Source: Candidatus Eiseniibacteriota bacterium | GTDB lineage: Bacteria; Eisenbacteria; RBG-16-71-46; CAVPCR01 | Assembly (NCBI GenBank): GCA_963823555.1 | Contig: CAWGMA010000003.1 | Location: forward strand, 1-64,000 | DNA length: 64,000 nucleotides | Direction: 5' to 3' | In this document: positions 1 through 17,705 of the stretch, one piece after another | How the letters are laid out: the number at the start of each line of letters is the position of its first letter | Numbering within the stretch: position 1 is the first letter of the stretch | Notes under the pieces: model-generated | Seen by the model: only the letters and a program-made list of their open reading frames with translations | Databases searched by the model: none | Told to the model about the DNA's origin: nothing | Made by a program: the position numbers and the translations under genes

Positions 1-1165
1 CTGTCCTGCTGCTTCGTTCCATTTCTCGTATTGCTCTGATCTTGCTGGTCGGGGCTGGGCTACTGATCCGAAGCTTCCGCGCGCTCACCCAGGTCGATCT
101 CGGCTTTCGACCCGAACGCCTGGTGAGCTTCTTCGTCGGCGCGCCGCCCGCGCCGTTCGACAGCATCGACGCGGTAAGGACCACTATCGGACCCTGGAGG
201 AACGGCTTCGCGCGGTGCCCGGCGTTGCTTCAGTCGGCTCGGTGGACGCCCTGCCGCTCGCCGGCTTCGACAGCGACGTCAACTTCCATATCGAGGGGCG
301 AGCGCTGCCCAAGCCCGGCGAAGGGCAAGTGGCCTGGATCCGGCGCGCGACCCCCGACTATTTTCCGACCCTGGGCCTCGAGCTGGTTGAAGGACGAGGC
401 TTCGACTCGCGCGACACCCAGGACGCAGCACCGGTGGTCATCGTCAACCAGACCCTGGCCAGGCGCAGCTTCGGATCCGAGAGCGCGCTCGGTAAACGCA
501 TCAACGTCAACCGGGCGAGCGCGCCGGTGTGGCGGGAGATCGTCGGCGTCGCTCACGACGTCAAGAACTTCGGTCTGCGCGCCGAGTCACGCAATGCCGC
601 GTACTTCCCGTTCGAGCAGCTGCCCACCCGCGGCATGTTCTTGGTGGTCAGAGCTGGTGGCGATCCAGACTCGGTGATTCCCGCCGTGCGCCAAGCGATC
701 ACTGCGCTCGACCCGACCGCGGCGCCGAGCGTGTCGACGATGAGGGATCTCATCCGTAGCTCGGTGGCCGTCGATCGTTTCCTCACCCAGCTGTTGGCTT
801 TGTTTGCCTTGGTGGCTCTTTTGCTCGCCGCGGTCGGGCTCTATGGCCTGGTCAGCTACAGCGTCGGACGACGGCTGCGCGAGATCGGTCTGCGCATGGC
901 TTTGGGCGCCGATCGGACCGAGGTTTCGTCGTGGGTGCTTCGACAGAGTTTGCGTCTCTCGATCGTGGGCGTGGCCTGTGGACTTCTCGGCGCCCTGTTC
1001 ATGACTCGCTTCATGGCGGGCCTGCTGTTCGAGGTGAGCCCGATCGATCCGCTGACGCTCGGCTCGGTGGCGGCAGTGATGATCGCGGTCACCGCGGGCG
1101 CGAGTGTCGTGCCCGCCTGGCGCGCAGCTCGGACCGACCCGGTCACGGCGCTACGCGCCGACTGA
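1..1165 (+). CDS. ABC transporter permease (MacB/FtsX-like, ADOP type), 5'-truncated by the window, frameshift near 170-215
   Basis: LLIRSFRALTQVDLGF in one frame, then TPDYFPTLGLELVEGRGF, VVIVNQTLARR, GLYGLVSYSVGRRLREIGLRMALGA and C-terminal PAWRAARTDPVTALRAD. Confidence 0.88.
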   Translation, partial: CPAASFHFSYCSDLAGRGWATDPKLPRAHPGRSRLSTRTPGELLRRRAARAVRQHRRGKDHYRTLEERLRAVPGVASVGSVDALPLAGFDSDVNFHIEGRALPKPGEGQVAWIRRATPDYFPTLGLELVEGRGFDSRDTQDAAPVVIVNQTLARRSFGSESALGKRINVNRASAPVWREIVGVAHDVKNFGLRAESRNAAYFPFEQLPTRGMFLVVRAGGDPDSVIPAVRQAITALDPTAAPSVSTMRDLIRSSVAVDRFLTQLLALFALVALLLAAVGLYGLVSYSVGRRLREIGLRMALGADRTEVSSWVLRQSLRLSIVGVACGLLGALFMTRFMAGLLFEVSPIDPLTLGSVAAVMIAVTAGASVVPAWRAARTDPVTALRAD

Positions 1166-1173
1166 GGGCGTAG

Positions 1174-1746
1174 CAGTCCCGAATGCCCCTTCGGGGCGTC
1201 GATGAGTATGAAAGCGCCTGAGCCAGATGTAACAGCGGCGGCGGATCGGAGTCGCCCCGCTGGGTGACGCCTCGGCTGGCGGGTGAATCCAGAGGGTAGG
1301 CCTCGGCTCCGCTCTCCGTCGCTTCGGGCGTGGCGGTGGATCGTGGGGTTCTCGCTGCGCTCCTCCGAGAGGCACCCTGCGGGACGACCCGAGTCCGCCG
1401 CCTTGCGGACGTCTTGGAGGGCGCTCTATTCGAACTTCCACGTCTCTGGGAAAGAGGCCTTTTCAGAACAGTCGTGCATGCCCCTTCGGGGCGCCGATGA
1501 GGATGAAAACGCCTCACTGGATTCGGCTCGAGTGGAGCGGCCGCGCTTGCGCGGCCGAGGCGGACTCTGTCCGCTTTCGTCTCTTCGAAGGGGCGCATTT
1601 TCAGAACAGTCCAGGATGGCCCTCGAGGCTCCGACGAGGATGAAACATTTCACCGAATCATGGCTTTTCATGGCTAGCTCGGCCGAGGCGGACTGTGTCC
1701 GCCTCCTCAAAGGAGAAGGGCAATTTCAGAACAGCCCGTGGTGAAA
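1174..1746 (+). repeat. Intergenic mosaic repeat: 3-4 degenerate copies of a ~50 bp unit plus two copies of a second 23 bp hairpin unit
   Basis: (TTTTCAGAA)CAGTC-N4-ATGCCCCTTCGGGGCG(C/T)CGATGAG(G/T)ATGAAA at ~1174 and 1460, diverged copy at 1598, partial TTTCAGAACAG at 1724; CGGCCGAGGCGGACT(C/G)TGTCCGC at 1552 and 1680. Confidence 0.8.
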
Positions 1747-1808
1747 GTCCCTCCGGCTGCTAGGCCCGCGCCTTGGCGAAGCGGCTCGGTTGCTGGTAGG
1801 AATCGTCT

Positions 1809-2190
1809 GTGAGCGAGCCCCACCACGACGACGAGTTCACCCTTTTCGATTTGCGCGTGGAAGTGATCGGCTCCACCCCGGCCTGGAGATGGTGTGCAAC
1901 CACCGAATCGGCGACTACTTCGAGCTCTGCGGCGAAAATCTGACCCTGCCGCCCGGTCAGTCGTTTCCGATCTATGCCCTCGCGGCCTTGCTGCCGTTGT
2001 TGCCGGCCAAGCAGCGGCAGACCCATGCCAATGACTGGATGACCACCGACAGCGACATCGCCTGCCCGATCCGCTGTGCGGCGCGGTGTTCCGGATCACT
2101 CGGGTCGGCGAGCGGGTGTTCCGACATTCCGAGGTGACCCGCACGCCGCTCTCGTCGGCGCCCGACCCAGCCCCCAAAAAGGACGAATGA
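1809..2190 (+). CDS. TIGR04076-family protein (frameshifted)
   Basis: DDEFTLFDLRVEV...MVCNHRIGDYFELCGENLTLPPGQSFPIYALAALLPLLPAKQRQTHANDWMTTDSDIACP; ATGA overlap with the next gene at 2187-2190. Confidence 0.75.
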
Positions 2191-3275
2191 GCGTCGCCGG
2201 ACCCAGGGGCGCCGTGACCCGTGGCGAGGAGGGAGAACGCTTGGCGGTCGAGCGCGTCGAGATCGCGCCGGGATACACCGTGCCGCGCTGGATTCAAGGC
2301 TGCTGGCAGCTGTCGGCGGGCCACGGCTCGCGGGCTCTCGACGAAGAAACGCTTCTGCGCCGCCTGCTCGAGCGCACTCGTCTCGGTTTCGACACCTTCG
2401 ACTGCGCCGACATCTACACCGGCGTCGAAGAGCTGCTACGGCGGCTACTCGCCGGGCTCGGCGCGCACCTCGGCGCCGCGCACGGTCCAGGTCCACACGA
2501 AGCTCGTCCCCGACCTGGCGCTCCTTAGCCTCGACTCGACCGGCGCTCGGTCGCGCGCGTCGTCGACCGCTCGCTCCGCCGTCTCGGCGTCGACGTCTCG
2601 GACTCGGTTCAGTTCCACTGGTGGGGCTACCAGACAACGGGTTGTGTCGACGTCGTACACTGGCTCGCCGACCTGCGGCGCGCCGGCAAGATCCGTCATC
2701 TCGGGGTCACCAACTTCGACGCCGCGCACTCTCGAGATCGCTCTCGAGCGGGATTCCGATTGCCCTCGTCCAGGTGCAGTACTCGCTGCTCGACCGCCGT
2801 CCGGCGGCGACCTCGGCGATCTCTGCCGCGTCGCGGGGTTCGTCTGCTCTGCTACGGCACTCGCCGGTGGCTTTCTCGCTGAGCGATGCTTGGCGGCGCC
2901 GGACCGATCGAGCTGGCGAACCGATCGCTGGTCAAGTATCGGCTGATCGTCGACGAGCTGGGCGGCTGGCACTGTTTGCAGCGACTGCTCCAGACTCTTC
3001 ACGCGGTGGCGCGGGATCGCCACACCACGATCCCGGCGATCGCGACTCGCTGGGTCCTTGAGCGTCCGAGCGTGGCTGCGGTGATCGTTGGCGTCGGCGA
3101 TGGCAGCCACGATTTGATGGCTCTTCAACCCGCCCAGCTCGGTGACCGCGATCGCCAGAGGATCGACACCGCGCTCACTGAGATGCCGAGTCCGCCAGGC
3201 GGCGTCTACGAGCTCGAGCGCGAGATCGACGGTCGCCACGGACGGATCATGAAGTACGACCTTCAGAGCGGGTGA
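2187..3275 (+). CDS. Aldo/keto reductase (multiple frameshifts)
   Basis: GCWQLSAGHG, GFDTFDCADIYTGVEE, VHTKLVPD, QVQYSLLDRRP, NRSLVKYRLIVDELGGW, GRHGRIMKYDL across frames. Confidence 0.8.
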
Positions 3276-3342
3276 GCTCGCTCGGCTACTATCTTCGACC
3301 TGCGACCACCCCCGGGAACCGAGCCCAGCGTAGAGAACGCAC

Positions 3343-4499
3343 ATGCCAGGTAATAGCTTCGGACACGTCTTCCGCATCACGACCGCCGGCGAGAGCCACG
3401 GGCCGGCCAATGTCGCGATCGTCGACGGGGTACCGGCCGGCTCTCGGCTGTCCGAGGCCGACCTCCGGCCCGATCTGGCGCGGCGTCGCCCCGGCCAGTC
3501 GTCGAGGTCACCACCCAGCGCCAGGAGAGCCGACGACGCGGAGATCCTCTCGGGGGTCTTCGGGGGCACACCACCGGCACCGCGATCTCGCGATCGTGAT
3601 TCGCAACCGCGATCAACGCTCGCGCGACTACTCGACCGACATCGCGACAGTAAATCCGACCCGGCCACGCCGATTACACCTTCGACGCCAAGTACGGTCG
3701 CCGCGACTATCGCGGCGGTGGTCGCTTCGAGCGCGCGCGAGACCAACGTCCGGGTCGCGGCCGGCGCGGTCGCCAAGAAGCTGCTGCGAGTCGCTCCACG
3801 GCGTCGCGGTCGTCGGCTACGTGCGCCAGGTCGGCTCGTCATCGCTGACGCCGGTGCCGGCACGCCGCGGGGGTCGACCAGTCGCCGACGTCGAGGCGAA
3901 CATCGTCCGCTGCCCGGACCGACGCGCGGCGGCGGATGATCGAGCTGATCGAGAAGGTGCGCAAGCAGGCGACTCGATCGGCGGCGTGGCCGAGATCGTC
4001 GCCCCGGAGTGTCCCGGCGGGTTGGGGCGAGCCGGTGTTCGACAAGCTCAAGGCCGATCTCGCAAGGCCCTGTTCAGCCTGCCGGCGGTGCTCGGCGTCG
4101 AGTACGGCACTGGCTTCGGCTGCGCGACGCGCGAGGGGGAGCGAGAACAACGACCGTTCTGTCGCAACGAGGGCGACACCGCGCGATCGTGACCCGACAC
4201 GAACCGCCACGGCGGCATGCTCGGCGGCATCTCGTCGGGCATGCCGATCGTCCTGCGTGCGGCGTCAAGCCGACCAGCAGCTTGCCGCGCGAGCAAGACA
4301 CGGTGACGAATCGCGGCGAACCGACGACGATCCGCACCAAGGGCCGCCACGATCCCGTGCCTGCTGCCGCGCTTCGTACCGATGGCCGAGGCCATGGTCG
4401 CGCATCGTGCTCGCCGATCACTGGCTGCGTCAGCTCAGCATCACGGCCGCCCGAGAGCTGCTCGAGTCGGAGCGACCCAGCGCGAAGAACGGCGCTTGA
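3343..4499 (+). CDS. aroC: Chorismate synthase (multiple frameshifts, probably sequencing errors)
   Basis: [65 protein letters not shown] motifs spread over three frames. Confidence 0.92.
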
Positions 4500-5244
4500 A
4501 CCTCCTGCTGCTGACCGAAGAAGACTTCGACCGCGGCGGTCCTGACTGCCATCGCGTGACCCACGCGGAGGCGACGGTCCGCGACGAGCGGCTCGTTCAC
4601 CTGCGCAAAGTGCTGCGGGCCGAGGTCGGCGACTCCCTGAAGGCGGGGTTGCTCGACGGCAAGGTCGGTCGCGCGACCGTGCTCGCGATCGATGTGCGCG
4701 GGTGTCGTCTCGAGGTCGAGCTCGATTCGGATCCGCCAGCGCCGCTCCCCGCCTCGCTGGTGCTCGCCCTGCCCCGGCCCAAGTTCCTGGGCCGCATCCT
4801 GCAGTCCGCGACGACCATGGGAGTCAAGGAGATGGCGTTCGACAGCGCGCGGGTCGAAAAGAGCTTCTGGAGCAGCTCGCTGCTCGAGCCGGCAAGGCTC
4901 GAGCGGCATCTGCTCCTGGGTCTCGCGCAGGGCCGCGACACGGCCCTGCCGAGGCTTCGAGATCGAGCGCAGCTGGAACGACGCCGTCGAGCTTCTGGCG
5001 GCGCGACTCGTCGACTCGAAGGGCTACCTCGCCGACGGCGACGCCGAGCATCCCTTTGCAGCTTCGATCCCGGGCCCCACGGTAGTCTTGGTCGGTCCGG
5101 AGGGCGGCCTGATCGATGCTGAGATCGCGCAGCTCGAGGCGATCGGCTTCGAGCCGCGGAGCCTGGGACCGAGACCGCTTCGGGTGGAGACAGCGGTGCG
5201 CGGTTCTCCTCGGGCGAGTCAGCAATCCATGCCCCGACTCTTGA
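4496..5244 (+). CDS. rsmE: 16S rRNA m3U1498 methyltransferase RsmE (frameshift near 4960)
   Basis: HLRKVLRAEVGD, LALPRPK, RVEKSFWSS, GLAQGRDT, VGPEGG, SLGPRPLRVETAV; TTG start overlaps the aroC stop. Confidence 0.85.
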
Positions 5245-5549
5245 TCGGTCCAATCGTTCCCACGGAATCGTTGAAGTCGCGACCAGGCCAAGCAGGTTCC
5301 AACACTCGTGGCACAATGGCCCCACCAACTCAAGGCCCGGTCGAGAAGCTGATGCGAGGCGTGCACCAAGATCACCGCCGCCAGCGGCTTTGGCGTCAAC
5401 CCCGGAGTCACCGTGACGCTCCAGTCAGGCGGCACGATCGAGTTTCAGGCCGGCTCCAGTGCGGCGGGGATTCTCAACGCAAAAATCGGCTTCCCCTGAG
5501 CGCTGGCCTCGGAGCGACGGCGGAGCGACCGTCGCTCCCCACGTAACGA

Positions 5550-6566
5550 TTGGTTCGCGGGTTGATCACCCACATCACCAACGGCGAATCGGCGGCCGCT
5601 CGCATCCGCAATTCGGGTGTCGACGGCGAGGTCTTTTCCTGGGACGACGTTCTTCACGAGGGGCCGGTTTCTGCCGGTCTGGCGCTCGGCGAGCTGAGTG
5701 TGGTTCGCGCCGCCTTCGTCGCAAGCCAGGGTTGGAGCGATCCCGAGAGCGCGCGAGAACGATTCGAGGAACGAAACCGTCGCCTCGAGCGGTCTCTTTT
5801 TCTGCGACGAGGTCTGCCTGTGGTTCGAGCACGATCTCTACGATCAGCTCCAGCTCTTGCAGCTGCTCGACTGGTTCCACGGCCGATGGCCAGGCAACGT
5901 CCAGCGCAACGCACCCGCTGCAAGCGGTAGCAGGCTCAGCCTGGTCTCTATTGGCGACCACGAGTCGGTGTCGTCCTTTCTCGGCCTCGGCCAACTCGAA
6001 CCCGAGTACTTCCCGGCGCTGTTCGACGACCGGATCACCGTCGGCCGCGATCTGTTGAAGCTCGGCCAGGAAGGCTGGCGAGCCTTCCGCGCCGATCCGC
6101 TCTGTTGGCTCGACCTGGCAACTCATCCGCGGCCCGCGCTTCCGTTCCTGGCCAACGCGATGACGAGACTGCTCCAAGAGCCGCCCTCGACTCGCAACGG
6201 CCTGGGCCGCACCGAGCAACAGGCGCTGAACAAGTGAACGGACGGAGCCGTACCCTGGGCGAGCTGTTCTGCGATTCCCAGCGGCGCGAGCAGGCTCCGT
6301 TCCTGGGCGACCTGGTTTTCTTCGATCGCATCGAGGCGCTGGCAACCGAGCCCCGAGCCTTGCTGATCCTCGAGCAGGGTCGAGGATCGGTGACGCCGGC
6401 GAGGGCATGCCGCACAGCCCGGTTGACGCCAGACGGCGAGGCAGTGGCGAGCGGCGAGCTCGACGCCATCGACGTCCTCGGTTGCGATCGCTGGTTGGGT
6501 GGCGTCCACCTGCTTGCTGGACATGCGATGTGGCGCTGGGACGGCGAGCGCCCAATCATGATCTGA
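5550..6566 (+). CDS. DUF1835-domain protein (frameshifted)
   Basis: HITNGESAA, WDDVLHEGPV, LWFEHDLYDQLQL, FLGDLVF, RWLGGVHL...WRWD. Confidence 0.75.
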
Positions 6567-6663
6567 CACCGAGGTCTCGGTACTCGGCCTCGGGCTCTCC
6601 ATTCTGGGCTCGAGCGCGTGCTCCGTTAAGATCGGAGCGAAGTCGAGAACGGAGCGCAGAAGC

Positions 6664-7105
6664 ATGGTCGAGCGAACTGTCCCCACCGACCGCCCGAGAT
6701 CCGAGATCAGCCGCCGCGCGGTGCTCGGCGGAGCCGCCGCCACTCTCCGGTGTGGGCCTTTGCGGTTGGACCTGCCGGCGCGATCTTGCGGGTCGCGGTC
6801 GAAGAAGGAACGGAGTGGCAGCCTCTTCTGTTCACCCGAGAGCAGGCGCACGCGGTCGCTACCCTTGCCGAAACGATCCTGCCGGCGACCACCGAGCCCA
6901 AGCGAAGCCCCGGCGCACTCGACGCGCGGGTCCACGAGTTCATCGACCTAGAGCTGTCGCTGGCCGACGACGACGCGCCGACCGAGTTCCTACAAGGACT
7001 CGCCTGGGTCGAAGCACGCAGTGAGGCGGTATACGATGGCGCCGTCGCCGATCTCTCGGGCGCCGAGCGCATCGAGCTGCTCGACCCGATCAGCGACCGC
7101 CACGA
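6664..7105 (+). CDS. Gluconate 2-dehydrogenase subunit 3-like Tat-exported protein, frameshifted and 3'-truncated at the junction
   Basis: Twin-arginine ISRRAVLGG; LAETILPAT..SPGALDARVHEFIDL; the C-terminal part is missing. Confidence 0.65.
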
Positions 7106-7109
7106 GATC

Positions 7110-8465
7110 GCGCAGACGCGGCCGAGGTAGTCCTTCACCAGCCCGAGGAAGCGCTCCTGCTGGCCGCGGTAGAGCCAGACGATGGCCGCGAGGTTCTGCA
7201 TCTGCTCGGGCGAGAAGTCGTAGATCTTGCGCGTGACCTTGCGGTAGACGTTGCGCGCGTCGAGCATCAGCACCTTGTCGCGGCGCTCGGCCGGCTTGGC
7301 CCGGTCGAAGTGCCACAGCTCGCAGGGGACGGTGCGGGTGTAGAAGAAGTTGGAGCGGATGGAGATCATCACGTCCACGTCGCCGGTCTCGACGATCTTC
7401 TGGCGCACCTCCTTCTCGCCGTGCCCGGCGCTGGACGCCTGCGAGGACATGACGAAGCCGGCGCGGCCCTTGTCGCTCAGGTAGCTCCAGAAGTAGGAGA
7501 TCCAGAGGTAGTTGCCGTTGCAGACCTTCTTCTGCTTGTTCACGCCCGGCAGGCCGAAGGGCAGGCGCGGGTCGCCCTTGATGCGCTCGGCGTCCACCAG
7601 GTCCACGTTGAAGGGCGGATTGGCCATCACGAAGTCGCACTTGCCGACGAGGCTGTGCTCGTCCTGGTAGTAGGTGATGGCCTCGGCGATCTTGCCCTCC
7701 AGCCCGTGCACCGCGAGGTTCATCTTGGCGATGCGGATGGTGTCGCGGTTCTTCTCCTGGCCGTAGAAGACGACCTTCTTCGCCGTGTCGCCGCCCTCGT
7801 GCTCGATGAAGTGGCTGGACTGCACGAACATGCCGCCCGAGCCGCAGGCCGGGTCGAACACCGTGCCGTGGTCGGGCTCGATGACGTTGACGATGGTCTG
7901 CACGATCGACGACGGCGTGAAGAACTCGCCGTTGTCGTGCGCCTTCTGGATCGAGAACTTGGCGAGGAAGTACTCGTAGATGCGGCCGAAGACGTCGCCG
8001 GTGGCCTGCTTGATCTGCTCGCTGTTGAACAGGCGCATCAGGTCTTCGAGCACCTTGGTCTCGAAGATGCCGTAGTCCTTGGGCAGCACGCCGAGGAGCG
8101 GCTCGAACTCGGCCTCGATGGCGGTCATGGCCTCGGTGACGAGCTTGGGCAGGTCGGCGCCGCTCACGGCGGCCTGCTGCATGATCCAGTCGTAGCGGGC
8201 CTTCTCGGGCAGGTAGAGCGAGCGGCGGCGCGATGTAGTCGGCCGGCAGGACCTTGCGCTTCGGCATCTTGCCGCTGGCCTGGTCGGCCTCGATCTGCCG
8301 GTGCGCGGCGTCGAAGCGGTTGGCGGCGTGGCGCAGGAAGATGACGCCCAGCACCGGCATGAAGTAGTCGCTGGAGGTGAGCTTGGAGTTGGCGCGGAGG
8401 TTGTCCGCGGCCTCCCAGAGGTCGGCTTCGAGCTTCTCGATGTCCTTGAAGGCGTCGCTGTTCAT
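7110..8465 (-). CDS. hsdM: Type I restriction-modification methyltransferase subunit M (N6-adenine); 1-nt frameshift near 8225; 3'-truncated at the junction
   Basis: LEADLWEAADNLRANSKL, DVFGRIYEYFL, GEFFTPSSIV, FDPACGSGGMF (motif I), MANPPFN (motif IV). Confidence 0.93.
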
Positions 8466-8566: not shown

Positions 8567-8626
8567 GCCTAACGCCCAGCATCAGCAGCGGCGCGGAGCG
8601 CCGTCCGCTGCATGCTGTTGTTAGGT
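8567..8626 (-). mobile_element. Integron attC site 6 (60 bp)
   Basis: Minus strand ACCTAAC-aacag-CATGCAGC...GCTGATG-ctgggc-GTTAGGC; R'' GGCAACCTAAC is the exact complement of GTTAGGTTGCC at the start of the same cassette (9581-9591). Confidence 0.92.
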
Positions 8627-8632
8627 TGCCTC

Positions 8633-9550
8633 TCATACTCGCTTCGAACTCCAGTACTCACGCAAGCTAGCAATTCTGCCATTGGACAGCTCTATGATTG
8701 CGACCTCTCGGATCTGTTTTCGCACGCCCTGGACGAGATCATCAAATTCTGCCTCCCACTCTGCGACCCCCGTTTCACCGCCCCCGTGAAGCGAGAGTAT
8801 CCGGAACTGTATGCTTGCCTGTTGGTCAACGACCTTTCGCTCCCAGTATTGTCGTATTTCAGCGATACCTTTAAGGGGGCGATCAAAGGCCCGTTCTTGG
8901 TAGATAGCATCAGAAGTGAAGAGGCTGCCCAACGCATCCACATCCTGGCTAGTCCACGCTTCGCCATAGCGACTCACGAGTTCTTTCAGTCCGTCCTGGG
9001 GCGGGCGACAAAGGTCCACCAGAGCAGCGTCCGGTTTCCAACTCTCGCGCAGCGCGCTGACCGAGCGCTTGGATGTGTCTCTGCTCACGAGCTTCCATGC
9101 CCACGGCCCGTACTCGACGGTACCCTGAGAATCAAAGCCGAGCCACTTTCCGAGCATGGCATTGCCAGTAGTATGGAGCACGAACTGGAACGTCCCATGC
9201 CAGATTTCGCCTTCGGCCAAGTTCTCCCAGCGACCCGTCAGATACGTTGCACTCTTCAGGCGACCTGAAAGCCGGTGAGTATGGGATTGAGATGTCACGT
9301 TGCGAGCAACGACGAAAGGGCCAACCTGACTGAGACGCATTAGCTGCTGTTCGTACCTGAAAATGCCCTTCGATGGGTACCTATAGCAGCATTCCCAGAT
9401 TCCTCGGACATGACGTCCCGGGCGAGGGAGCCCTCCTGAGACGATTCGTGCCAAGAAGTGATGAAGGGGCTCCTGGAGCACAATCTGGCTTGCAGCGGCA
9501 AGCACCACCCCTGCCACGAATAGGGCTATGGCGAGGACGGCGTCAATCAT
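8633..9550 (-). CDS. Gene cassette 6: N-terminal TM helix + beta-strand-rich domain + C-terminal SnoaL/NTF2-like domain
   Basis: Hydrophobic N-terminus; LTGRWEN..GEIWHGTFQFVLHTTGNAMLGKWLGF; YGEAWTSQDVDALGSLFTSDAIY...GIAEIRQYW...GRIASLREYW; bounded by attC sites. Confidence 0.75.
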   Translation of the reverse strand: MIDAVLAIALFVAGVVLAAASQIVLQEPLHHFLARIVSGGLPRPGRHVRGIWECCYRYPSKGIFRYEQQLMRLSQVGPFVVARNVTSQSHTHRLSGRLKSATYLTGRWENLAEGEIWHGTFQFVLHTTGNAMLGKWLGFDSQGTVEYGPWAWKLVSRDTSKRSVSALRESWKPDAALVDLCRPPQDGLKELVSRYGEAWTSQDVDALGSLFTSDAIYQERAFDRPLKGIAEIRQYWERKVVDQQASIQFRILSLHGGGETGVAEWEAEFDDLVQGVRKQIREVAIIELSNGRIASLREYWSSKRV

Positions 9551-9584
9551 CGGTGTCGCTCACTTCCAAATGCATCGTTTGGCA

Positions 9585-9644
9585 ACCTAACGTGGGGCAT
9601 CAGCGGCGGCGCACAGCGCCGGCCGCTGCATGCGGCTGTTAGCC
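9585..9644 (-). mobile_element. Integron attC site 5 (60 bp), R'' box rebuilt by the IS end
   Basis: Minus strand GGCTAAC-agccg-CATGCAGC...GCTGATG-ccccac-GTTAGGT; same short family as attC6. Confidence 0.9.
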
Positions 9645-9660
9645 TCAATGTAGCGAAAAG

Positions 9661-11039
9661 TCAGGCGGCTTGGCTGAGGGCATGAGCGATACGATGGAAC
9701 AAGGCTTCGGTCGTGGCGTTGCGAGCCAGGCGGAGCACGGTCGCTCCGGCTGGCTTGACGATCTCGCCGGCACGGTTGAAGAGCTCAAAGCGGAGCGTAC
9801 GGATGCTCTTGAGGACGAAGAGCGTTGTGCGCTTCCTGGAACGAGGTCGCCTGGGGGCGCCGGTCTCGATCTGGAAGTTGGTCAGCAGGTTGTGGGCGAG
9901 AACGACGAGCTGCTGCCAGGCGCTGTTGGCGCCGTAGTGATGGGTCGGGATCGTGTCGAAGGCGAGACCGGTCTTCAGTTCCCCGATCGTCTTCTCGTGG
10001 GCGCCCCGACCGCCCATGAAGTGCCACAGACGTCGGGGATCGAGGGTCAGGTTGGTGGCGACGGCGGAGTACTCGTAGGTGCCGTTGTCGGGGTCGAAGA
10101 GGTCGAGCTGGTAGTTCTTGCGCGTGCGGTGATGGACCTTCTTGCGATAGATGACGACGCGAAGGGTCAGCGCCCACTTCTCGAGGGTGATCTGCTGCTC
10201 GAAGGCATCCACCTCGGCTCGAGCCGCTTCCAGCGGCGGCGTGCGCGGATCAGGCTCTTCAGATCGAGCCAGCGCCAGAAGGGGACCTTGATCGCGTAGC
10301 CGGCGGCACGGGTTTCCAGCAGCTGGAAGACTTCACGGCGAAAGAAGGCCCCATCGAGGCGGAAGTCGAGCCGGTAGTCGTGGCCGAGCGTCTCGGCGAC
10401 CTGCGTGAAGAGGTCGCGGAGGAACGCGATGGACTTCTTGCCGTCGTGGACGTTCCCCGAGCGATTCTTCACCCGCAGGATGTGCCCGGTCTCGGCCAGG
10501 TGGGCGGTGATCGGGTAGTAGCTCGGCACCTTGCGGTGGTGGGGATTGAAGCCACGGAACGCCCGCTCCACCTTGAGGCCGGTGGAGTTGACGGTGCCGT
10601 CGACATCGATGGTCAGGGTGGCCAGGGGCAACCGGGTGATGGCCCGAGCCACGACAGCGGCATTCAGCGCCCGGAGCCGTTGCAGCGACGCTTCGGTGAA
10701 GCGCTTCAACCAGCGGCTGACGGTGTGGACGGCCGGGAGATCAGCCAGAGCGCAGAAGCGCAGCACCAGCGGATCGTGATTGAGGAAGGCGACATGGTGA
10801 AGTCGTCGCCCACCGACGACCAGGAGAGCGATCAGCAACCGGACCATCGACACCAGGCCGAAGTCACCGCAGACCCCCGCTCCGGCGAGGTGTTGTCGGA
10901 GGAGCTTGTTGAACTCGATGGCGCGCAGGTAGCGGCTGAACAGCTCGAGACCAGCGTACGAGGTCAGGCCGGTCGCGGAGAACTCGACGTGAAGATCACC
11001 ATTGACTCGCCGACTCAAATCCGCTTTTCTTCGTCTCAC
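9661..11039 (-). CDS. IS1380-family DDE transposase (single frameshift near 10212)
   Basis: LTSYAGLEL, TIDVDGTV, GFNPHHRKVPSYYP, NRSGNVHD, FRLDGAFF, RGAHEKTIGELK, ANSAWQQLVVLAHNL; the stop abuts the IR. Confidence 0.88.
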
Positions 11040-11120
11040 AGTATGTGGCCTTTCGTTGAGGTCGAGTGGTGTTCTGGTACAACGCCTTCAAACCACAACG
11101 GAAGGCCCTACTTCAAGCGG

Positions 11121-11146
11121 AAAGGCTCGGGTGACCGAGCCTTTTT
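11121..11146. terminator. Hairpin at the IS left end, terminator-like and possibly bidirectional
   Basis: AAAGGCTCGG-gtga-CCGAGCCTTT (10 bp perfect stem) with a T5 tract on plus and TTT on minus. Confidence 0.6.
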
Positions 11147-11158
11147 GCTACATCAAGG

Positions 11159-11419
11159 TTAGGCCACCCCCCTTGCCCGGGTACCAGCGAGAAGTCCCTC
11201 GACACTCAGGTCCTCATCAGCATCAGGCCAATGAATGCCCTCGCCGTCTCCGAGGATCTCCCAGTTGTTCCTCGCCGAGGCCGTTGCATGAAGAAGCCGC
11301 GGGAACCAAACGAGAGGAGCCGTTATGACCCGTCCATCCGCAAGCCCAACAGTGAGTTCGTCGTCCGAGATGGAGACGGTCCGAGCCAGCGGACGGAGTT
11401 CAATCGGGGAAGTACTCAT
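11159..11419 (-). CDS. DUF2442-family putative antitoxin (cassette 5)
   Basis: LTVGLADGRVITAPLVWFPRLLHAT...GEGIHWPDADEDLSVEGLL; its TAA lies in the original R'' box GGCCTAAC. Confidence 0.85.
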   Translation of the reverse strand: MSTSPIELRPLARTVSISDDELTVGLADGRVITAPLVWFPRLLHATASARNNWEILGDGEGIHWPDADEDLSVEGLLAGTRARGVA

Positions 11420-11639
11420 CCCAGGCCTCCTGCAGAATAGTCGAGTTCTCAAGCACGATCGCCTGGATTCTCCGGAGTTCCCATGGCGAGAAACCTGTGG
11501 ACCGAGCCAGACGGACCGGATTGAGCCAGAACTTCGCCAACATCCCTTCGCGCTGGACGTGAACGTGCGGGGGCTCTCCAATCTCATTGGAGAAGAAGAA
11601 CAGCCGATATGGCCCCGCGCGCAGGATCGTTGGCGACAT
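11400..11639 (-). CDS. DUF4160-family putative toxin (cassette 5)
   Basis: MSPTILRAGPYRLFFFSNE..EPPHVHV...AKFWLNPV..A...GF...EL...AWDEYF; overlaps its DUF2442 partner. Confidence 0.87.
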   Translation of the reverse strand: MSPTILRAGPYRLFFFSNEIGEPPHVHVQREGMLAKFWLNPVRLARSTGFSPWELRRIQAIVLENSTILQEAWDEYFPD

Positions 11640-11645
11640 GGACTT

Positions 11646-11654
11646 AGTCTAGCA
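11646..11654 (-). promoter_or_regulatory. Extended -10 promoter of the DUF4160/DUF2442 cassette (leaderless)
   Basis: Minus strand TGC-TAGACT, 6 nt upstream of the ATG, no RBS. Confidence 0.55.
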
Positions 11655-11686
11655 CTTTGCCCCATTTCCAACAGCCGCGTGCCAGT

Positions 11687-11786
11687 GGCCTACGTGCGCG
11701 CTCAGCTGCCGCCGGCAACTTCGCGATGCTCCGATTCTACTACCAAACTTGCGTTGCCGGCGGGCAGCTGCAGCGCGTGGTTATGC
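11687..11786 (-). mobile_element. Integron attC site 4 (100 bp); R' reads GTAGGCC, one T short
   Basis: Minus strand GCATAAC-cacgc-GCTGCAGC...GCTGAGC-gcgcac-GT(T)AGGCC; R'' matches GTTATGC at the cassette start (12436-12442). Confidence 0.85.
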
Positions 11787-12412
11787 CATATACTCGCCTT
11801 GGCTGGGGAGTTCGATGGCGACCTTGCGTTCAGCCCAGCATTGATTGACCGCCTTTAGAACTTCGAGCCGGCGTTCCTCCGTCATGTCCTGCCGGACAGA
11901 AGGGTCGCAGAGCCAGAACGCGTAGTTGAGGAAGACAGCTTGGTTGTTGGCGCTCACTTCGCATATGAAATCCATGCCGTTGTAGGCCAAAATCTCCGAA
12001 AGACCGTGAAGTTGCTCGCTGGCCGTTCGGTCAGCGAGCATGAATCGATTCGGGATTTCACCGACGAAGCTCGAGCCGAAGTAGCCGCTCGGAACAGCGA
12101 TTGTTCCCGCGATATTCCGGTTGAACTCGGCCAAGTCCTCGGCAGGCACCCAAAGCTCGAGGCGCGCCGTTGCTACCCACGCGCCGAGGCTCGAATCGTG
12201 AGACGTAGAAGTCGTCGACTTCGAACTCGGTGACGTACCCTGCGAACGGAGCCTCCTGCGTGTTCCAGTCTCGTGCAATCTGCCGGGCGTAACCGATGCT
12301 GAGGACGGAGAGAAAATCGGCTCGTAGCGGGGAGTCTGGGCGGAAACTCGCGCATGCCCGACGCGTACACCAGGCGGAGTTCGTGCAGGCCAACTGGTCG
12401 ATAAAGCTTCAT
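11781..12412 (-). CDS. Gene cassette 4: 'ADP-ribosylation/crystallin J1'-type (ART-like) protein, two frameshifts
   Basis: MKLYRPVGLHELRLV..SGMREFPPRLP / YARQIARDWN...GYVTEFEVD / ELWVPAEDLAEFNRNI across three frames; TAA inside R''. Confidence 0.7.
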
Positions 12413-12435
12413 CTCGCTCGTCCAGCTACTTTGTA

Positions 12436-12566
12436 GCATAACGTCCGGCATCAGCTGCGGGCAAGGTGGCGCGCCCCTGGCGCGCCGACCAAGTCCGCGG
12501 CGCCGCAGGCGCCGCTGTCGCCAGGGGCGTGACACCTTGGCCGTCAGCTGCATGCCGTTGTTCGCC
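12436..12566 (-). mobile_element. Integron attC site 3 (131 bp)
   Basis: Minus strand GGCGAAC-aacgg-CATGCAGC...GCTGATG-ccggac-GTTATGC with a long central palindrome; R'' complements GTTCGCC at 13532-13538. Confidence 0.9.
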
Positions 12567-12633
12567 GTCGCTTTGTCTCGGTCTCGACACCTTGAGCCTT
12601 GCGCGGAGTTGCAGCAGAACCTCGTCGCTTCGC

Positions 12634-13505
12634 TCACTCTCGGAATTCGTCGAAGAACTTGTCGTCAACGTCAAAGGTAAGGCGGGGTGTGAGGCCGAGT
12701 TCCAGTCTCTGGAACATCTCGACGAGCTTATTGCCGTCGACGAGCTCAATGGGGGAGCGCCGTCCCGACGAGCCTCTCGTCGAGCTTCTTGTGTGAACGT
12801 CCCCGTCGTTAGGATTATACCCTTGTCGGCACGACCGAGCATGGCTCCACGGAAGTCCCGAACCACGGGCGCCCCGACGCTGCTCCGATATCGTTTGCAC
12901 TGAAACAGAACCTTGAAGGTAACGAAGGGATTCACCTCGAGAATTCCCTCGCCGTCGATCCCCTCGTCGCCGGAACGGCCAGTCAGTGAGACCTGCTGGA
13001 ATCCTGCTTCGCGAAGCAGCCGCTGAGAGAGTCGCTCGAATCCCGCGAAGGGCAGAGCTATGATGATGTCGAGAAGTTGCTCACGGTAGTTTGCGGAGGC
13101 CGAGATGTCCACATCGTCTGGTGATTCAGTGTCGTCCGGAGTTGTGAGCTCCTGCCTCTGCCTCCGTCTTGCGGCGTCGGCTTGGACTTGCTTGCGGAAG
13201 ATCTCCTGCGCGTCGGCGTAGGTGAGGTGAGTCTTGGAGCCGTTGTCAGTCAGGCTCCAAACCCCACGATTGGAAGAATCGAGAAGGCCCTCGCGCTTGA
13301 GGTAGAACCGCGCCCAAGCAACTTGGTTCTTGAATCGCGGTCCACCGGAGGGGAGTGTCTCGTTCAACTGCTCCTCAGAGATGCCAGACAACTCGGCGAC
13401 CTTGTCGGTCGCTTCGTCGGGTGTGGCCGAGCCGCCGAGAGCCCGGAGCGCATCGAGGAGCGGGCCGAAATGGTGCAGGAACTGAGTGCCTTGCTTCTTG
13501 GTCAT
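12634..13505 (-). CDS. mrr: Gene cassette 3: Mrr-family type IV restriction endonuclease (frameshift near 12750)
   Basis: Mrr_N (PLLDALRALGGSA...RFKNQVAWARFYLKREGLL.S..RGVWSLT) and Mrr_cat (FERL, GRSGDEGIDG, QCKRY, VRDFRGAM, KGIILTTG.FT..A, IELVDG). Confidence 0.92.
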
Positions 13506-13531
13506 GGTGATCTCGTTATTGGTTTGTCTCC

Positions 13532-13630
13532 GGCGAACGTTCAGGGTAACCCGCGGGCCGAACCCGGTGCGGGCCTTGCGCACGCAAGGCCCGTGACGGG
13601 CGGGCCGTCAGGTTCACCCTGCTGTTAGCC
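13532..13630 (-). mobile_element. Integron attC site 2 (99 bp)
   Basis: Minus strand GGCTAAC-agcag-GGTGAACC...GGTTACC-ctgaac-GTTCGCC; R'' complements GTTAGCC at 14184-14190. Confidence 0.92.
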
Positions 13631-13631
13631 A

Positions 13632-13922
13632 TCAGCCCCTCGACCGCCATCTGCGTGGATCGCGACGACCATGCATACATGCCACCACGACAATTGTGTC
13701 GCTGTAGAGCCGATAGAAGAGTCCGTAGGGGAACCGCCTCACCCGAATTCGGCGCGTGTCGCGATGGAGAACGGGGAACGCCCTGGGGTTCTCGAGAACC
13801 CGCTCCATTGTGGAACGCAGGGCTTCGAGGAACGCCTCACCAAGGGCAGGGCCCCGCTCGCGGTACCAGCGGAACGCCTCCTCAATGTCTGCGGCGGCCG
13901 CCGGCCGAACGACGACCTTCAC
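13632..13922 (-). CDS. RelE/ParE-family toxin (cassette 2)
   Basis: VRPAAAADIEEAFRWY....ALG..FL....ENPRAFP...RR..VRRFPY.LFY....IVVVACMHGRRDP. Confidence 0.88.
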   Translation of the reverse strand: MKVVVRPAAAADIEEAFRWYRERGPALGEAFLEALRSTMERVLENPRAFPVLHRDTRRIRVRRFPYGLFYRLYSDTIVVVACMHGRRDPRRWRSRG

Positions 13923-14134
13923 GGAGTCTCGTGCTCGAGGCGCTGAAGAACCTCATCCCATGGGATTCCACGAGGTCCGTCCCGATCAAGATCGTCGAGG
14001 CGTCGGTCCAACTCCTCCCGCTGCCGGGCCGTCAGCGGTACGTCCTGGTCCTCTAGGCTGTCCCACAGCTTCTCAAGCAACTTGAGCCGTTCATCCGGCG
14101 AGAGTTTGTTGATGTCGATGGCTGGTTCGCTCAT
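13919..14134 (-). CDS. Putative addiction-module antitoxin, TIGR02574-like (cassette 2)
   Basis: LSPDERLKLLEKLWDSL....LT..QREELDRRL......GIPWDEV; GTGA overlap with the toxin start. Confidence 0.88.
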   Translation of the reverse strand: MSEPAIDINKLSPDERLKLLEKLWDSLEDQDVPLTARQREELDRRLDDLDRDGPRGIPWDEVLQRLEHETP

Positions 14135-14140
14135 GCCCCT

Positions 14141-14169
14141 ATTCTCCCATTGGCCGGCTGCCAAGCCAA
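14141..14169 (-). promoter_or_regulatory. Sigma70-type promoter of the TA cassette 2 (leaderless)
   Basis: Minus strand TTGGCT-17 nt (ending TGG)-GAGAAT-6 nt-ATG. Confidence 0.6.
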
Positions 14170-14183
14170 GGGCCCATCTGACT

Positions 14184-14284
14184 GGCTAACGCACGGCTAA
14201 CCCGCGGGCGGGCCCGGCGCGACCCTTGCGCTCTCTGCAAGGGTCGTGACGGGGCCGACCGTCGGGTTCAGCCGGTAGTTATAC
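14184..14284 (-). mobile_element. Integron attC site 1 (101 bp)
   Basis: Minus strand GTATAAC-taccg-GCTGAACC...GGTTAGC-cgtgc-GTTAGCC; R'' complements GTTATAC at attI. Confidence 0.92.
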
Positions 14285-14285
14285 G

Positions 14286-14765
14286 TCACTGTCTGCCACC
14301 TTCACGCTTCGGACTTCTTTCCGCGGAGTTCTTGTCTCCATCGATTCGGCGCCTGAAGAGGTCGTAGTGCGCCCTGAGTCGCCCAACGTATTGCGGATCT
14401 TGAAGCACGACTTCCTCGATGAGCCGCAGGATCTCGGGAGCGTGCCCTGACTGCGGACTCGCCAGGTTGAGAATGGGGCCCTTCACTTGGTGAACGACCT
14501 CCGGATCGTCCTCGTGGGCCCACTTCGCGTAGAACTCGGCCGGCTCCCAGCCGTAGGCCACGACAGCTTCCGCGGACTTGCTGCGAGAGGAGACGACGTA
14601 GAAGAACACACGTCGGCAGTCGCACTCAGGCTCGTCACAGTACATCTCCAGGAGCGCATATTCCCCCGCCGGCAACTTGAACGGCGACGAGGCGAGGAGG
14701 GTAACCGTTCGCGTTTCTCGCCTTGCGATCTCTGGAAAGTGGTCGTGGAAGCCAACGTACGGCAT
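14286..14765 (-). CDS. Gene cassette 1: hypothetical protein with a CxxxxCxC motif
   Basis: 159 aa ORF filling the cassette; A.RETR.V, LEMYCDEPECDCRRVFF, VAYGWEP.EFY, D..YV.RL..HY..FR. Confidence 0.75.
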   Translation of the reverse strand: MPYVGFHDHFPEIARRETRTVTLLASSPFKLPAGEYALLEMYCDEPECDCRRVFFYVVSSRSKSAEAVVAYGWEPAEFYAKWAHEDDPEVVHQVKGPILNLASPQSGHAPEILRLIEEVVLQDPQYVGRLRAHYDLFRRRIDGDKNSAERSPKREGGRQ

Positions 14766-14788
14766 GCGCTCACCCTCGATTGATGTGC

Positions 14789-14807
14789 GTATAACGTGAA
14801 GTATACC
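14789..14807 (-). mobile_element. Putative attI site
   Basis: Minus strand GGTATAC-ttcac-GTTATAC (degenerate L box, 5 bp spacer, R box); no attC-like palindrome upstream; lies between the intI stop and the first cassette. Confidence 0.75.
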
Positions 14808-15023
14808 GCATGGATATCTCGCTTCTCGTTGCAGGGCGGTGCCAGGCTATCTCAATGGGCCGCGAGGGGAAAGACGTGATGCTCGCGGCCATTCCGCTGG
14901 AATCGGCCCGTACCCATACCGTGCTATCTAGCGGCCTCACGCGGGATATCCGGATACACGCTTCACTTCGTCCTGTCGCGTGGTGGAGAAGCCGCTGCGA
15001 AGCCAGGCCCGCCCGGCCCCGGC

Positions 15024-16109
15024 TCAGTCGAGTGGGCTCCTCACACCCCGCCCGCCCCGGTTGAGCACGTGCGTGTAGATCATCGTGGTACTCACATCGC
15101 GGTGGCCGAGGAGTTCCTGGATCGTCCGGATGTCGTAGCCGGCCTCGAGCAGGTGGGTCGCAAACGAGTGCCGCAGCGAGTGACAGCTCGCCGGCTTGGG
15201 GATACCGGCGCGCCGCACGGCCTCCTTGACCGCGCGCTGCAGCACCGACTCGTGCAGGTGATGCCGCCGGCGCTCCCCGCTGACACGATCCACGTACGGT
15301 CGACTGGCCGGGAAGACCCACTGCCAGGCCCATTCGCGGCTCGCGTTCGGGTACTTGGTGGCTAGCGCATAAGGCAATTCCACACTCCCCAGTCCATCCC
15401 GCAAGGCCGCCCCATGCTGCTTCCGCACCCGCTCGAGATGCGCCGCGAGCGGAGCCTTCACCCTCCTCGGAAGCATGGTGATGCGGTCCTTCCTCCCCTT
15501 CCCGTCACGGACCAGGATCTCGTTGCGAGCCATGTCCACATCCTTGACCCGGATCCGGCAGCATTCCATCACGCGCAGACCCGCACCGTAGAGAAGCGAG
15601 GCCATGATCCAGTGCGTGCCGTGGAGATGAGAGAGAATCGCCTCCACCTCGTCCCGGATCAGGACGACCGGCAGGCGCTGCGGGCGCTTGGCGCGGACGA
15701 TTCCGTCCATCCAGGCAAGGTCTCGATCCAGCACCTCGCGATAGAGAAACAGCAGCGCGCTCAGGGCCTGGTTCTGCGTCGATGCACTCACGCCGCGAGC
15801 CGCCAGGCTCGAGAGAAAGGCGGTGATCTCTGCCTCCGCCATCTCCAGCGGGTGACGCTTCCGGTGGAAGAAGATGAACCGCTTGACCCAGCCGACGTAC
15901 GCCTTCTCCGTGCGGTAGCTGTAGTGGCGCGCCCGGATGGCCATCCGCATCCGATCCAGAAGCTTCGGGGGACGCGGGCGCGCGGCGCCCGGCGGGGGCG
16001 CGGCGCCCGGCGCGTCCGACCAGCCCTCCGCCACGAGCGATCCGCTGTGGCCCCCGATCTCCGCACCTGCCGCTGCCCGGAACAGCGGCCCTTGCATCAT
16101 GAACCTCAT
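15024..16109 (-). CDS. intI: Integron integrase (tyrosine recombinase)
   Basis: [42 protein letters not shown], IntI-specific [58 protein letters not shown] before the ATG at 16109. Confidence 0.97.
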
Positions 16110-16193
16110 CTCATCACTCCTCGGGGTCCATGATCTGTAAGGAGCCCAGCACCACGAGCGGGCAGACTTCGTCCCTCTCACCGTCAGGCGGCC

Positions 16194-16220
16194 AAAAAAA
16201 GCGCGCCCGGCGGCTACGCG
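16194..16220 (-). terminator. Terminator-like GC hairpin with T7 tract between the NusG paralogue and intI
   Basis: Minus strand CGCGTagCCgccGGGCGCGc-TTTTTTT; imperfect stem with a bulge. Confidence 0.45.
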
Positions 16221-16292
16221 GGAAGATGCGGCCACGTCGAGGTCCCCGAGCCATCGCTGAGCGGCCCGTGTGCGGAGCCGCCGCGGTTCCTC

Positions 16293-17006
16293 TCAGGTCG
16301 CCCGTGCGTAGCGATGTGCGCTCGCGTCCACGTCGAGCCCGGCCGCCATGCTGGTGGCCGCATGACGTCGCGGATCGCAAACGGGCTCCACGTCACGCGC
16401 GTCGATCTCGACCGCCGCACCGCGGCCGAGAACGCTCACGTTGAGCACGAGTCTGGCGCGCCCCCGCCGGAACCAGCGTCCGGCCACCAGGCCCTCGATA
16501 CCGGCAAGAGGTCCGCTGGTCACCCGCACCCGCATGCCTCGCTCGAGCGCCGGGGACGGCACGAGATCCGCCCCGGTCGCCAGGGCTGCACGGATCTGAC
16601 GGAGCTCCGCGAGCAGTCGCTCCGGTCGCGTGACGGGGATCATTCGCGCGATGGCGCCCGTTTCCAGGAGCGCCACCCGCCACTCAGGCGTCAGGCAGGC
16701 AAAGACGTAGCTCGCGAAGAGCGGCACCTGATGGACACGGCGGCGAAGCGTGCCCGTTCGGTGATCGCGGAGAGGAAGGTAATGCCGAACATGGAGACGC
16801 TCGCAGGCACGACCCACCTGCTTCTCTCGCCGCGAGCGGGTGTAGAGGACCGCCCAGGACTCGCCGTCGAGAGGCAGATCGAGGCTGTCGATCGGCGCCG
16901 TCTCGCGGTCGGCCTGCGGCTCCGGGTCCTCGGCGCATGCTCCCTGCCCGGGCGCCGGGCGCGCCACCATGGGGTATGCCGTCGGATACTGGGGCACGGC
17001 GGTCAT
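16293..17006 (-). CDS. NusG-family transcription antiterminator paralogue (UpxY/RfaH-like)
   Basis: NGN motifs WAVLYTRSRREKQV, HYLPL, PLFASYVF; KOW GMRVRVTSGPLAGIEG...RLVLNVSVLGRGAAVEID; RBS GGAGG 6 nt before the ATG at 17006. Confidence 0.9.
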   Translation of the reverse strand: MTAVPQYPTAYPMVARPAPGQGACAEDPEPQADRETAPIDSLDLPLDGESWAVLYTRSRREKQVGRACERLHVRHYLPLRDHRTGTLRRRVHQVPLFASYVFACLTPEWRVALLETGAIARMIPVTRPERLLAELRQIRAALATGADLVPSPALERGMRVRVTSGPLAGIEGLVAGRWFRRGRARLVLNVSVLGRGAAVEIDARDVEPVCDPRRHAATSMAAGLDVDASAHRYARAT

Positions 17007-17018
17007 CTTCGACCTCCA

Positions 17019-17111
17019 GTCCGCGGGGCGGCGAGCCTCACCAGCGGTGACCGGGGGTGCCCCGCGTCGGACCAAGGGTCAAGACTAGCAGTGACTCCGA
17101 GTCATCCTCAA
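17019..17111 (-). promoter_or_regulatory. Promoter, palindromic operator and structured leader of the NusG paralogue
   Basis: Minus strand TTGAGG-18-TAGTCT with extended TG; TGACTC-C-GAGTCA palindrome at 17092-17104; leader stem CGCGGGGC (17022-17029)/GCCCCGCG (17059-17066). Confidence 0.55.
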
Positions 17112-17159
17112 GGCGTTTGCCGCCCCTCCACGACGGCCGCATCCCCTTCTACCAGGGGA

Positions 17160-17705
17160 CTATTCCGGCTCCTCGGATTGTTCACTGCCGGCGTCCTCGA
17201 GGAACGTGCCATCCGGGGCCAGCGTGACCTCGACGTCCCTGGCGGCGCCCGTTGCCAGGATGATCTCGTATTCCTCGATCACGTCCTCACCTTCCCTTAC
17301 CGCCCTCGTTTCCATGATCTCCTTGAGTGCGGCGCCGGGATACCTGCTCGCCACGGCGTTCCGGACCGCCGCGGGCAGATCCGACTCGGGGATCTGCTGC
17401 TCCCAGTTGTGGAGGGTGCCGTCCTCCTTGATGTCCGCCTCCAGCTTCCTCCCATCCACCTCGAACTCGACATCGACGACGACGATGTCGCCCTCCTTCT
17501 CCTGGCTCCACTCGCGGATCTCGGCCCCGGGGAATCTGGCCTCGAGAGCCGCCCTCACCTTCGCGGGAACCTCGTTCTCCTCCGCCGCCTTCTCTTCGAC
17601 CGCTTGCTCCTGCTGGGCGCAGGCGATCGGCATGAGCAAGATGGATAGAGCGAACAAGACCTTGAATAACCCATCGGCCGACTGCTTCACACAGCGTGAG
17701 ATCAT
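17160..17705 (-). CDS. PepSY-like/BLIP-fold periplasmic (lipo)protein
   Basis: Signal peptide ending PIAC; two repeats VPAKV..A....FPGA.I.E / LPAAV..AV...YPGA.LKE; GGAGG RBS. Confidence 0.75.
   Translation of the reverse strand: MISRCVKQSADGLFKVLFALSILLMPIACAQQEQAVEEKAAEENEVPAKVRAALEARFPGAEIREWSQEKEGDIVVVDVEFEVDGRKLEADIKEDGTLHNWEQQIPESDLPAAVRNAVASRYPGAALKEIMETRAVREGEDVIEEYEIILATGAARDVEVTLAPDGTFLEDAGSEQSEEPE

Follow-up and report, generated by a model that had tools for sequence, protein, structure and literature searches.

A specialised NusG paralogue and an ops-like site at the head of inverted integrons in Candidatus Eiseniibacteriota

In Bacteroides, the gene for the NusG paralogue UpxY stands at the head of the capsule operon that is its target; its opsX site, at -11 to +1, reads YGCGNAGCR, and pause hairpins of class 1 reach -12 to -9 (PMC11685472; papers cited by PMC number are represented here by parts of their text). 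The E. coli ops element is GCGGTAGC (PMC11685472), and RfaH acts mainly by excluding NusG and Rho and by aiding translation, with cis-loading mentioned as a proposed ancestral mode (PMC7819879). Integrons with intI on the strand of attI and the attC array are a known, inverted layout (PMC4889954, PMC4909258). Here we describe a locus (8567..17111, all parts on the minus strand) in a stretch of 64,000 nucleotides of a Candidatus Eiseniibacteriota genome (GCA_963823555.1, contig CAWGMA010000003.1; G000:C3:1-64000), hereafter the window, where a NusG paralogue gene is followed by intI, attI and six cassettes. At the head of this inverted integron, a conserved module of promoter-like site, paralogue gene, hairpin and ops-like 12-mer likely loads the paralogue on RNA polymerase, giving one long transcript through intI and the array.

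The locus resembles UpxY/opsX in having the paralogue gene at the head of its presumed target and an N-C-G-N-A-G-N mini-hairpin after a hairpin reaching about -10 (PMC11685472). Its gene order is different. UpxY heads a capsule operon whose leader, ahead of the gene, contains opsX, and upxZ is the next gene. Here the motif lies downstream of the gene, intI comes next with no UpxZ-like gene in between, and the presumed target is the array of an integron instead of polysaccharide genes. With RfaH/ops (PMC7593976, PMC7819879) it shares an equivalent of F56, a changed Rho-loop F165, an ops-like site and foreign-gene targets; unlike RfaH, the paralogue lacks E48 and R73, has a beta-KOW in its model and is linked to its target. 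Its intI, attI and array share a strand as in described inverted integrons, but the elongation-factor gene and candidate loading site found here go unmentioned in the available part of PMC4889954. We found no report of an integron with a NusG-type antiterminator in the searched full-text literature, judged by title and start of abstract; subscription journals fall mostly outside that literature, as do supplements such as the neighbour tables of PMC7593976. Within that scope the combination of integron and specialised NusG paralogue is new; it is narrow in distribution, and its proposed function is putative.

An integron headed by a NusG paralogue, and its recurrence

The locus is a genuine integron by its sequence features. 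The integrase scores 461 bits against TIGR02249 (cut-off 265), with the IntI-specific insertion present and catalytic motifs intact; a conserved attI core adjoins intI, and six attC sites lie on the minus strand. These sites come from our own two-arm heuristic, tuned on them, rather than from the IntegronFinder model. A seventh candidate (score 30), inside an open reading frame (ORF), was discarded, and three shuffles of 30 kb gave 0, 1 and 0 matches at score >=30. The intI gene is co-oriented with the array at 9 of the 10 phylum intI loci with detected attC. Two sigma70-like patterns gave no Pc-like site between the end of intI and attI in the window, a consensus that may not be the phylum's. 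Cassettes 1 and 2 are duplicated on contig C2, which is suggestive of recombination activity.

An earlier note on this DNA had described a NusG paralogue ending about 180 bp upstream of a co-oriented intI, then attI and six cassettes, with no polysaccharide operon behind it. The distance from the paralogue end to the intI start is 183 bp, and Pfam finds no polysaccharide gene after the paralogue in the window. Judged on profiles and model, this is a genuine specialised NusG paralogue that belongs to none of UpxY, RfaH or LoaP. Pfam NusG matches it at E 3.8e-7, and the best NCBIfam match, UpxY (NF033644), reaches 63 bits against a cut-off of 100; scores for RfaH (TIGR01955; 37 vs 144.5 bits), LoaP (NF033641; 26 vs 125 bits) and the NusG family model (26 bits, cut-off 136) are lower still. 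An AlphaFold model from 60 relatives has an NGN domain and a beta-KOW at a predicted local distance difference test score of 95, and Foldseek matches it to NusG and RfaH. The genome carries a separate housekeeping nusG at C3:540 kb, with IFG in its Rho loop where the paralogue has VLG. Of 33 sequences of the clade, 32 keep F at the position of RfaH F56, and 31 have L in place of NusG Rho-loop F165 (residue roles from PMC7593976, section 10). Crude ratios of nonsynonymous to synonymous substitution rates (dN/dS) run from 0.25 to 0.59 among clade genes (21 pairs). Rho was matched in all five genomes tested, above cut-off in four; a second, weaker rho-like match occurs in G000 and in each of four relatives.

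A profile search of 206 phylum genomes returned eight close copies in four genomes (two in G000, four in G036, one each in G047 and G049) and two further, distant copies. Close protein matches carry the title Candidatus Eisenbacteria. The order paralogue, intI, attI, attC array is found in the window and at L046, L048 and L049. At L044 (G036), paralogue, attI and attC lie on one strand, with no intI found at the locus. The second G000 copy (L043) faces an opposite-strand tyrosine recombinase of the Xer type, 36% identical to IntI and without the IntI insertion; beyond it, on the paralogue's strand, are 21 long repeats with cassette-like genes. Six of the eight copies stand upstream of a clear array and co-oriented with it. 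The paralogue's orientation thus tracks the array rather than the integrase, as L043 and L044 show.

The recurrence of the linkage in other genomes indicates that the adjacency of paralogue and integron is not chance. The caveat that it might be coincidental, given further minus-strand genes upstream, has lost force: the upstream neighbours vary between genomes, and 7 of the 8 copies have a promoter-like site of their own. Placing the protein in a tree gave one distinct group of 34 rows, with a Shimodaira-Hasegawa-like approximate likelihood ratio of 98 and no outgroup locus inside. This is a quick tree that includes 7 of the 8 phylum copies, all of them in that group, the frameshifted L047 being omitted; about 27 further clade proteins are sequences only and stand outside the context counts. 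The branch of EcRfaH is long, and we therefore make no claim on how the group is related at depth to RfaH or UpxY.

The nearest outgroup consists of NusG paralogues from Planctomycetota and Verrucomicrobiota polysaccharide loci. At least 155 such distant loci were collected (30-46% identity, many on short contigs). A minority have the 12-mer described below just before or after the gene. Unlike the clade, they have no IntI match or attC nearby, at 155 of 155 among the matches listed. By our own count the paralogue leads polysaccharide synthesis or export genes at 22 of 33 outgroup loci, in a Pfam check that covered 67 of 88 candidate proteins, and a distant copy in G038 does so too. It is therefore the distant relatives, not the close homologues, that precede polysaccharide loci; on this count, as on recurrence in other genomes, the central idea of the earlier note stands. 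At L131:10705-13334 a distant paralogue is followed after 75 nt by the 12-mer, and the genes that it leads encode phage-tail sheath and tube proteins instead of polysaccharide functions.

Other collections held distant relatives at most. Viral contigs gave no relative with a single-protein query, and an alignment query gave 51 distant loci and a motif search 22 matches, none with an IntI match or attC. Plasmids gave four distant matches. No clade-level member occurred in samples of 121, 351 and 401 genomes from three other phyla; the 121-genome sample contained two outgroup-level matches, and the two larger samples had no positive control.

Conserved signals around the paralogue gene

A promoter-like site of the form TTG-N-TAnnnT lies ahead of 7 of the 8 clade genes, where chance would place one in about 2% of search intervals; the stricter promoter rule of the scan tool found no promoter in the window. 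Between the integrase end (at L044, the motif) and attI, none of six regions contains a promoter-like site.

Aligning the DNA past the paralogue stop codon brought out a conserved block. Its 12-mer, GGRCGRAGYSYR, is present in all eight copies, 87-199 nt past the stop (genome-wide, 0.7% per 400 nt). G000 has two instances of a longer form of the motif and G036 has four, all of them following a paralogue. By itself the short motif lacks specificity: 104 of the 206 phylum genomes match it elsewhere, and most of the 30 such loci inspected lie inside coding sequence. A composite motif (GGTAGC plus the 12-mer) also occurs at L264 (G060:C277:2951), where no NusG paralogue was called nearby.

The R:Y pair of the stem is G:C in four and A:T in three of seven aligned clade copies, which points to a covarying stem. 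Rfam gave no match up to E 1 in seven loci. The G-G start and Y-R end of the 12-mer fit what we take to be the elemental pause consensus. It also fits the opsX register of PMC11685472. At the level of sequence, then, the element looks like an ops/opsX-type site, a 12-nt element with a potential non-template mini-hairpin.

Because the 12-mer was defined on the clade loci, the outgroup is the fairer test. The sense-strand 12-mer occurs there in 8/146 upstream and 7/146 downstream windows (15/292), the antisense 12-mer in 0/146 and 2/146 (2/292), with a background of 0.27%. The R:Y pair is complementary in 16/16 near matches vs 19/35 far matches.

Expression of the array and the alternatives

The paralogue is best read as a processivity (anti-Rho) factor that is dedicated to the cassette array and recruited by an ops-like site, and every step beyond gene order and motif is one that we infer. 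Transcription would start near 17080. On reaching the 12-mer the polymerase would pause, and the non-template strand there could fold into a small R-C-G-N-A-G-Y hairpin for the NGN domain to read. By then displacing housekeeping NusG, the paralogue would shield the untranslated attI and attC spacers and poorly translated cassettes from Rho, and translation may be aided too. Processive elongation would cross intI (at L043, 1.6 kb of untranslated antisense instead) and then the array. Since the site comes soon after the gene that encodes the paralogue, freshly made protein might load in cis. The array is the most likely target, and integrase co-expression would be a by-product of the inverted layout.

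The earlier note proposed read-through of a hairpin-rich attC array. The attC hairpins are doubtful as the barrier to the polymerase because, in the parts of these papers used here, attC removal was mostly without effect while poor translation lowered downstream mRNA (PMC11511950), and attC sites are not terminators (PMC8876359). Untranslated RNA is the more likely barrier; PMC11511950 favoured mRNA stability as the explanation, and the part of it used here holds no Rho test. The same findings bear on a LoaP-like mode of action, in which the factor would carry polymerase through attC hairpins or intrinsic terminators and the conserved element would be an RNA hairpin and not a DNA ops site. Such a mode could draw on the conserved hairpin with an internal loop ahead of the 12-mer and on the strength of attC hairpins. 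We give it little credence, as the region has only 3 terminator-like sites where shuffled sequence has 7.2, attC sites rarely terminate (PMC11511950, PMC8876359), and the element that covaries is the opsX-like mini-stem.

The same note supposed that the factor couples integrase expression to array expression. The link to the array has stood up, but coupling to intI looks secondary, since the paralogue's orientation follows the array and not the integrase. A stronger form of integrase control is conceivable: the module would raise a co-oriented intI and suppress an opposed Xer-type integrase by antisense or convergent transcription, and cassettes would use local promoters. The motif does lie 54 nt ahead of the intI start in the window, read-through at L043 and L047 would go antisense over the integrase, and a promoter-like site precedes the L043 array. 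However, L044 retains paralogue, motif and attI though it has no integrase, a single 1.1 kb gene would be an unusual target for the NusG-paralogue family, and opposite effects would be required in the two layouts. We consider this explanation unlikely.

How the gene came to its place bears on whether it acts there at all. The four intI-linked cases fall in one five-member IntI group (support 93) and so probably go back to a single origin, with inheritance or transfer between two families. G048, which completes the group, is without the paralogue, having lost it or never had it. G048 has a similar promoter-like site 305 nt before its IntI match, a pattern seen at none of the other 25 IntI loci, which suggests that the paralogue gene sits between intI and its promoter. 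A paralogue and ops site derived from a polysaccharide operon might have been inserted once beside an integron and carried along without acting. The close kinship of the IntI-linked cases, the absence of the gene from G048 and from most phylum integrons, and the accumulation of foreign DNA in integron regions would all suit such hitchhiking. It nevertheless seems improbable to us: the gene is kept at 46-60% identity with dN/dS <0.6, the motif is in 8/8 copies, and the gene adjoins two integrase families that are 36% identical, with four copies in one genome.

Several observations weigh against the processivity factor that we favour. The L043 array has its own promoter-like site just before it. 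The kinship of the intI-linked cases and the gap in G048 belong here as well. An IntI match is present in 66/206 phylum genomes; counting IntI homologues, as had been proposed, found the paralogue upstream at 4 of the best 30 of the phylum intI loci, and 26 (including G072) are without it, seven of them sharing the inverted layout. G048 and the inverted-layout loci without it imply that the paralogue is dispensable. Two of the eight copies are poor cases: L047 (G036, end of C1) has the layout of L043 but stops at the contig edge, and L045 is weak, with small co-oriented genes and a single full attC 3.5 kb off. The 12-mer was defined on the same eight loci in which it is found, the strict motif is missing from most outgroup genes, and in the outgroup a flank-inclusive weight matrix does not favour the sense strand. 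Two-sided change is absent from the upstream hairpin, conserved though it is. Finally, Rho-loop G166 is retained in 31/33 clade sequences, and the equivalent of RfaH E48 is E in 1/33 and that of R73 is found in none; Rho exclusion is therefore not certain.

In the general model of integrons, cassette expression depends on position, and distal cassettes are near-silent until shuffled forward. If the paralogue does act on the array, integrons would have a level of control not reported before, an elongation factor of their own; deep arrays could be expressed without recombination, and integron arrays would be added to the kinds of target that specialised NusG proteins serve. It is possible, though rather doubtful, that promoter, NusG paralogue and downstream ops-like site form a portable module that replaces the Pc gradient through cis loading, so that whole arrays are expressed at once, and that serves both true integrons and an undescribed Xer-type integron-like system with long attC-like repeats. 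Whether distal cassettes are limited by Rho and uncoupled translation or by RNA decay could be tested directly at this locus, where the protein is defined, the site is 12 nt long and G048 serves as a relative that naturally lacks the gene.

Features of the locus and neighbouring observations

Coordinates are collected in the table. Every cassette ORF is on the minus strand, and several are frameshifted in the assembled sequence. Contigs from four DNA runs cover parts of the locus; none among the pieces listed spans both paralogue and intI. For 14200-17200, no RNA data set was listed as containing the sequence. The expectation of defence cassettes holds for one frameshifted Mrr gene and two toxin-antitoxin-type pairs and fails for the rest of the array, which is not defence-like. 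One of these pairs, in cassette 5, is presumably toxin-antitoxin-like.

Table. Parts of the locus in window coordinates, with the basis for each
Feature	Position	Strand	Basis or remark
Sigma70-like promoter candidate, TTGAGG-18-TAGTCT with TG extension	17082..17111	-	below the scan tool's threshold
Specialised NusG paralogue, NGN + beta-KOW, extended N-terminus	16293..17006	-	profile, tree, model; ORF intact
Conserved hairpin region, candidate pause hairpin, GTAGC on 5' side	16175..16222	-	conserved; without two-sided covariation
Ops-like 12-mer GGACGAAGTCTG, candidate non-template-DNA hairpin and loading site	16163..16174	-	sequence comparison
IntI integron integrase, co-oriented with array (inverted type)	15024..16109	-	TIGR02249
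attI core	14789..14807	-	conserved in 5 aligned loci; cassette-1 copy on C2 begins there
Cassette 1, hypothetical 159 aa	14286..14765	-	99% copy on contig C2
attC 1	14184..14284	-	two-arm attC scan
Cassette 2, antitoxin (PF09720) + ParE toxin	13632..14134	-	Pfam; 98% copy on C2
attC 2	13532..13630	-	two-arm attC scan
Cassette 3, Mrr-type restriction endonuclease, frameshift near 3' end	12634..13505	-	Pfam
attC 3	12436..12566	-	two-arm attC scan
Cassette 4, protein of no recognised family, frameshifted	11781..12412	-	ORF scan
attC 4	11687..11786	-	two-arm attC scan
Cassette 5, DUF4160 + DUF2442 gene pair	11159..11639	-	Pfam
IS1380-family element, transposase frameshifted	9643..11158	-	terminal inverted repeats read in sequence
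attC 5	9585..9644	-	two-arm attC scan
Cassette 6, membrane-anchored protein with SnoaL-like domain	8633..9550	-	Pfam
attC 6	8567..8626	-	two-arm attC scan

The IS1380 element interrupts the array exactly at the first box of attC 5, which is left intact. A frameshifted hsdM (Type I restriction methyltransferase; 6707-8465, minus strand) immediately follows the last attC and shares its strand; Pfam finds no hsdS or hsdR in window positions 1-6700. The loop of the conserved hairpin contains a run of seven T (16198-16192, minus strand) in the window copy only, which was not called a terminator.

A second attC array of about 13 sites (G000:C2:1,600-28,600) holds the 98-99% copies of cassettes 1 and 2; no intI lies in the first 32 kb of C2 beside it, and no overlap joining the start of C3 to C2 was found. 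In G036, array heads (L046:3500-8100; L044:8500-9200) consist of nearly identical cassettes in series, each about 310 bp long, and the attC sites there enclose no called ORF.

The Xer-type integron-like system occupies G000:C3:409,234-432,820 (L043) and, in G036, the end of C1 (L047) and C4:1-39,300, where the contig start has 31 matches to the L043-type long repeat. No overlap joining the end of C1 to the start of C4 was found. Among the papers listed on non-canonical integron-like systems, the available part of PMC8618304 included, none evidently describes such an array. The 21-31 long repeats, missed by the attC scan, start and end like attC boxes and flank secreted-protein and toxin-antitoxin-like genes, and the L047 integrase has a DUF1802-like tail.

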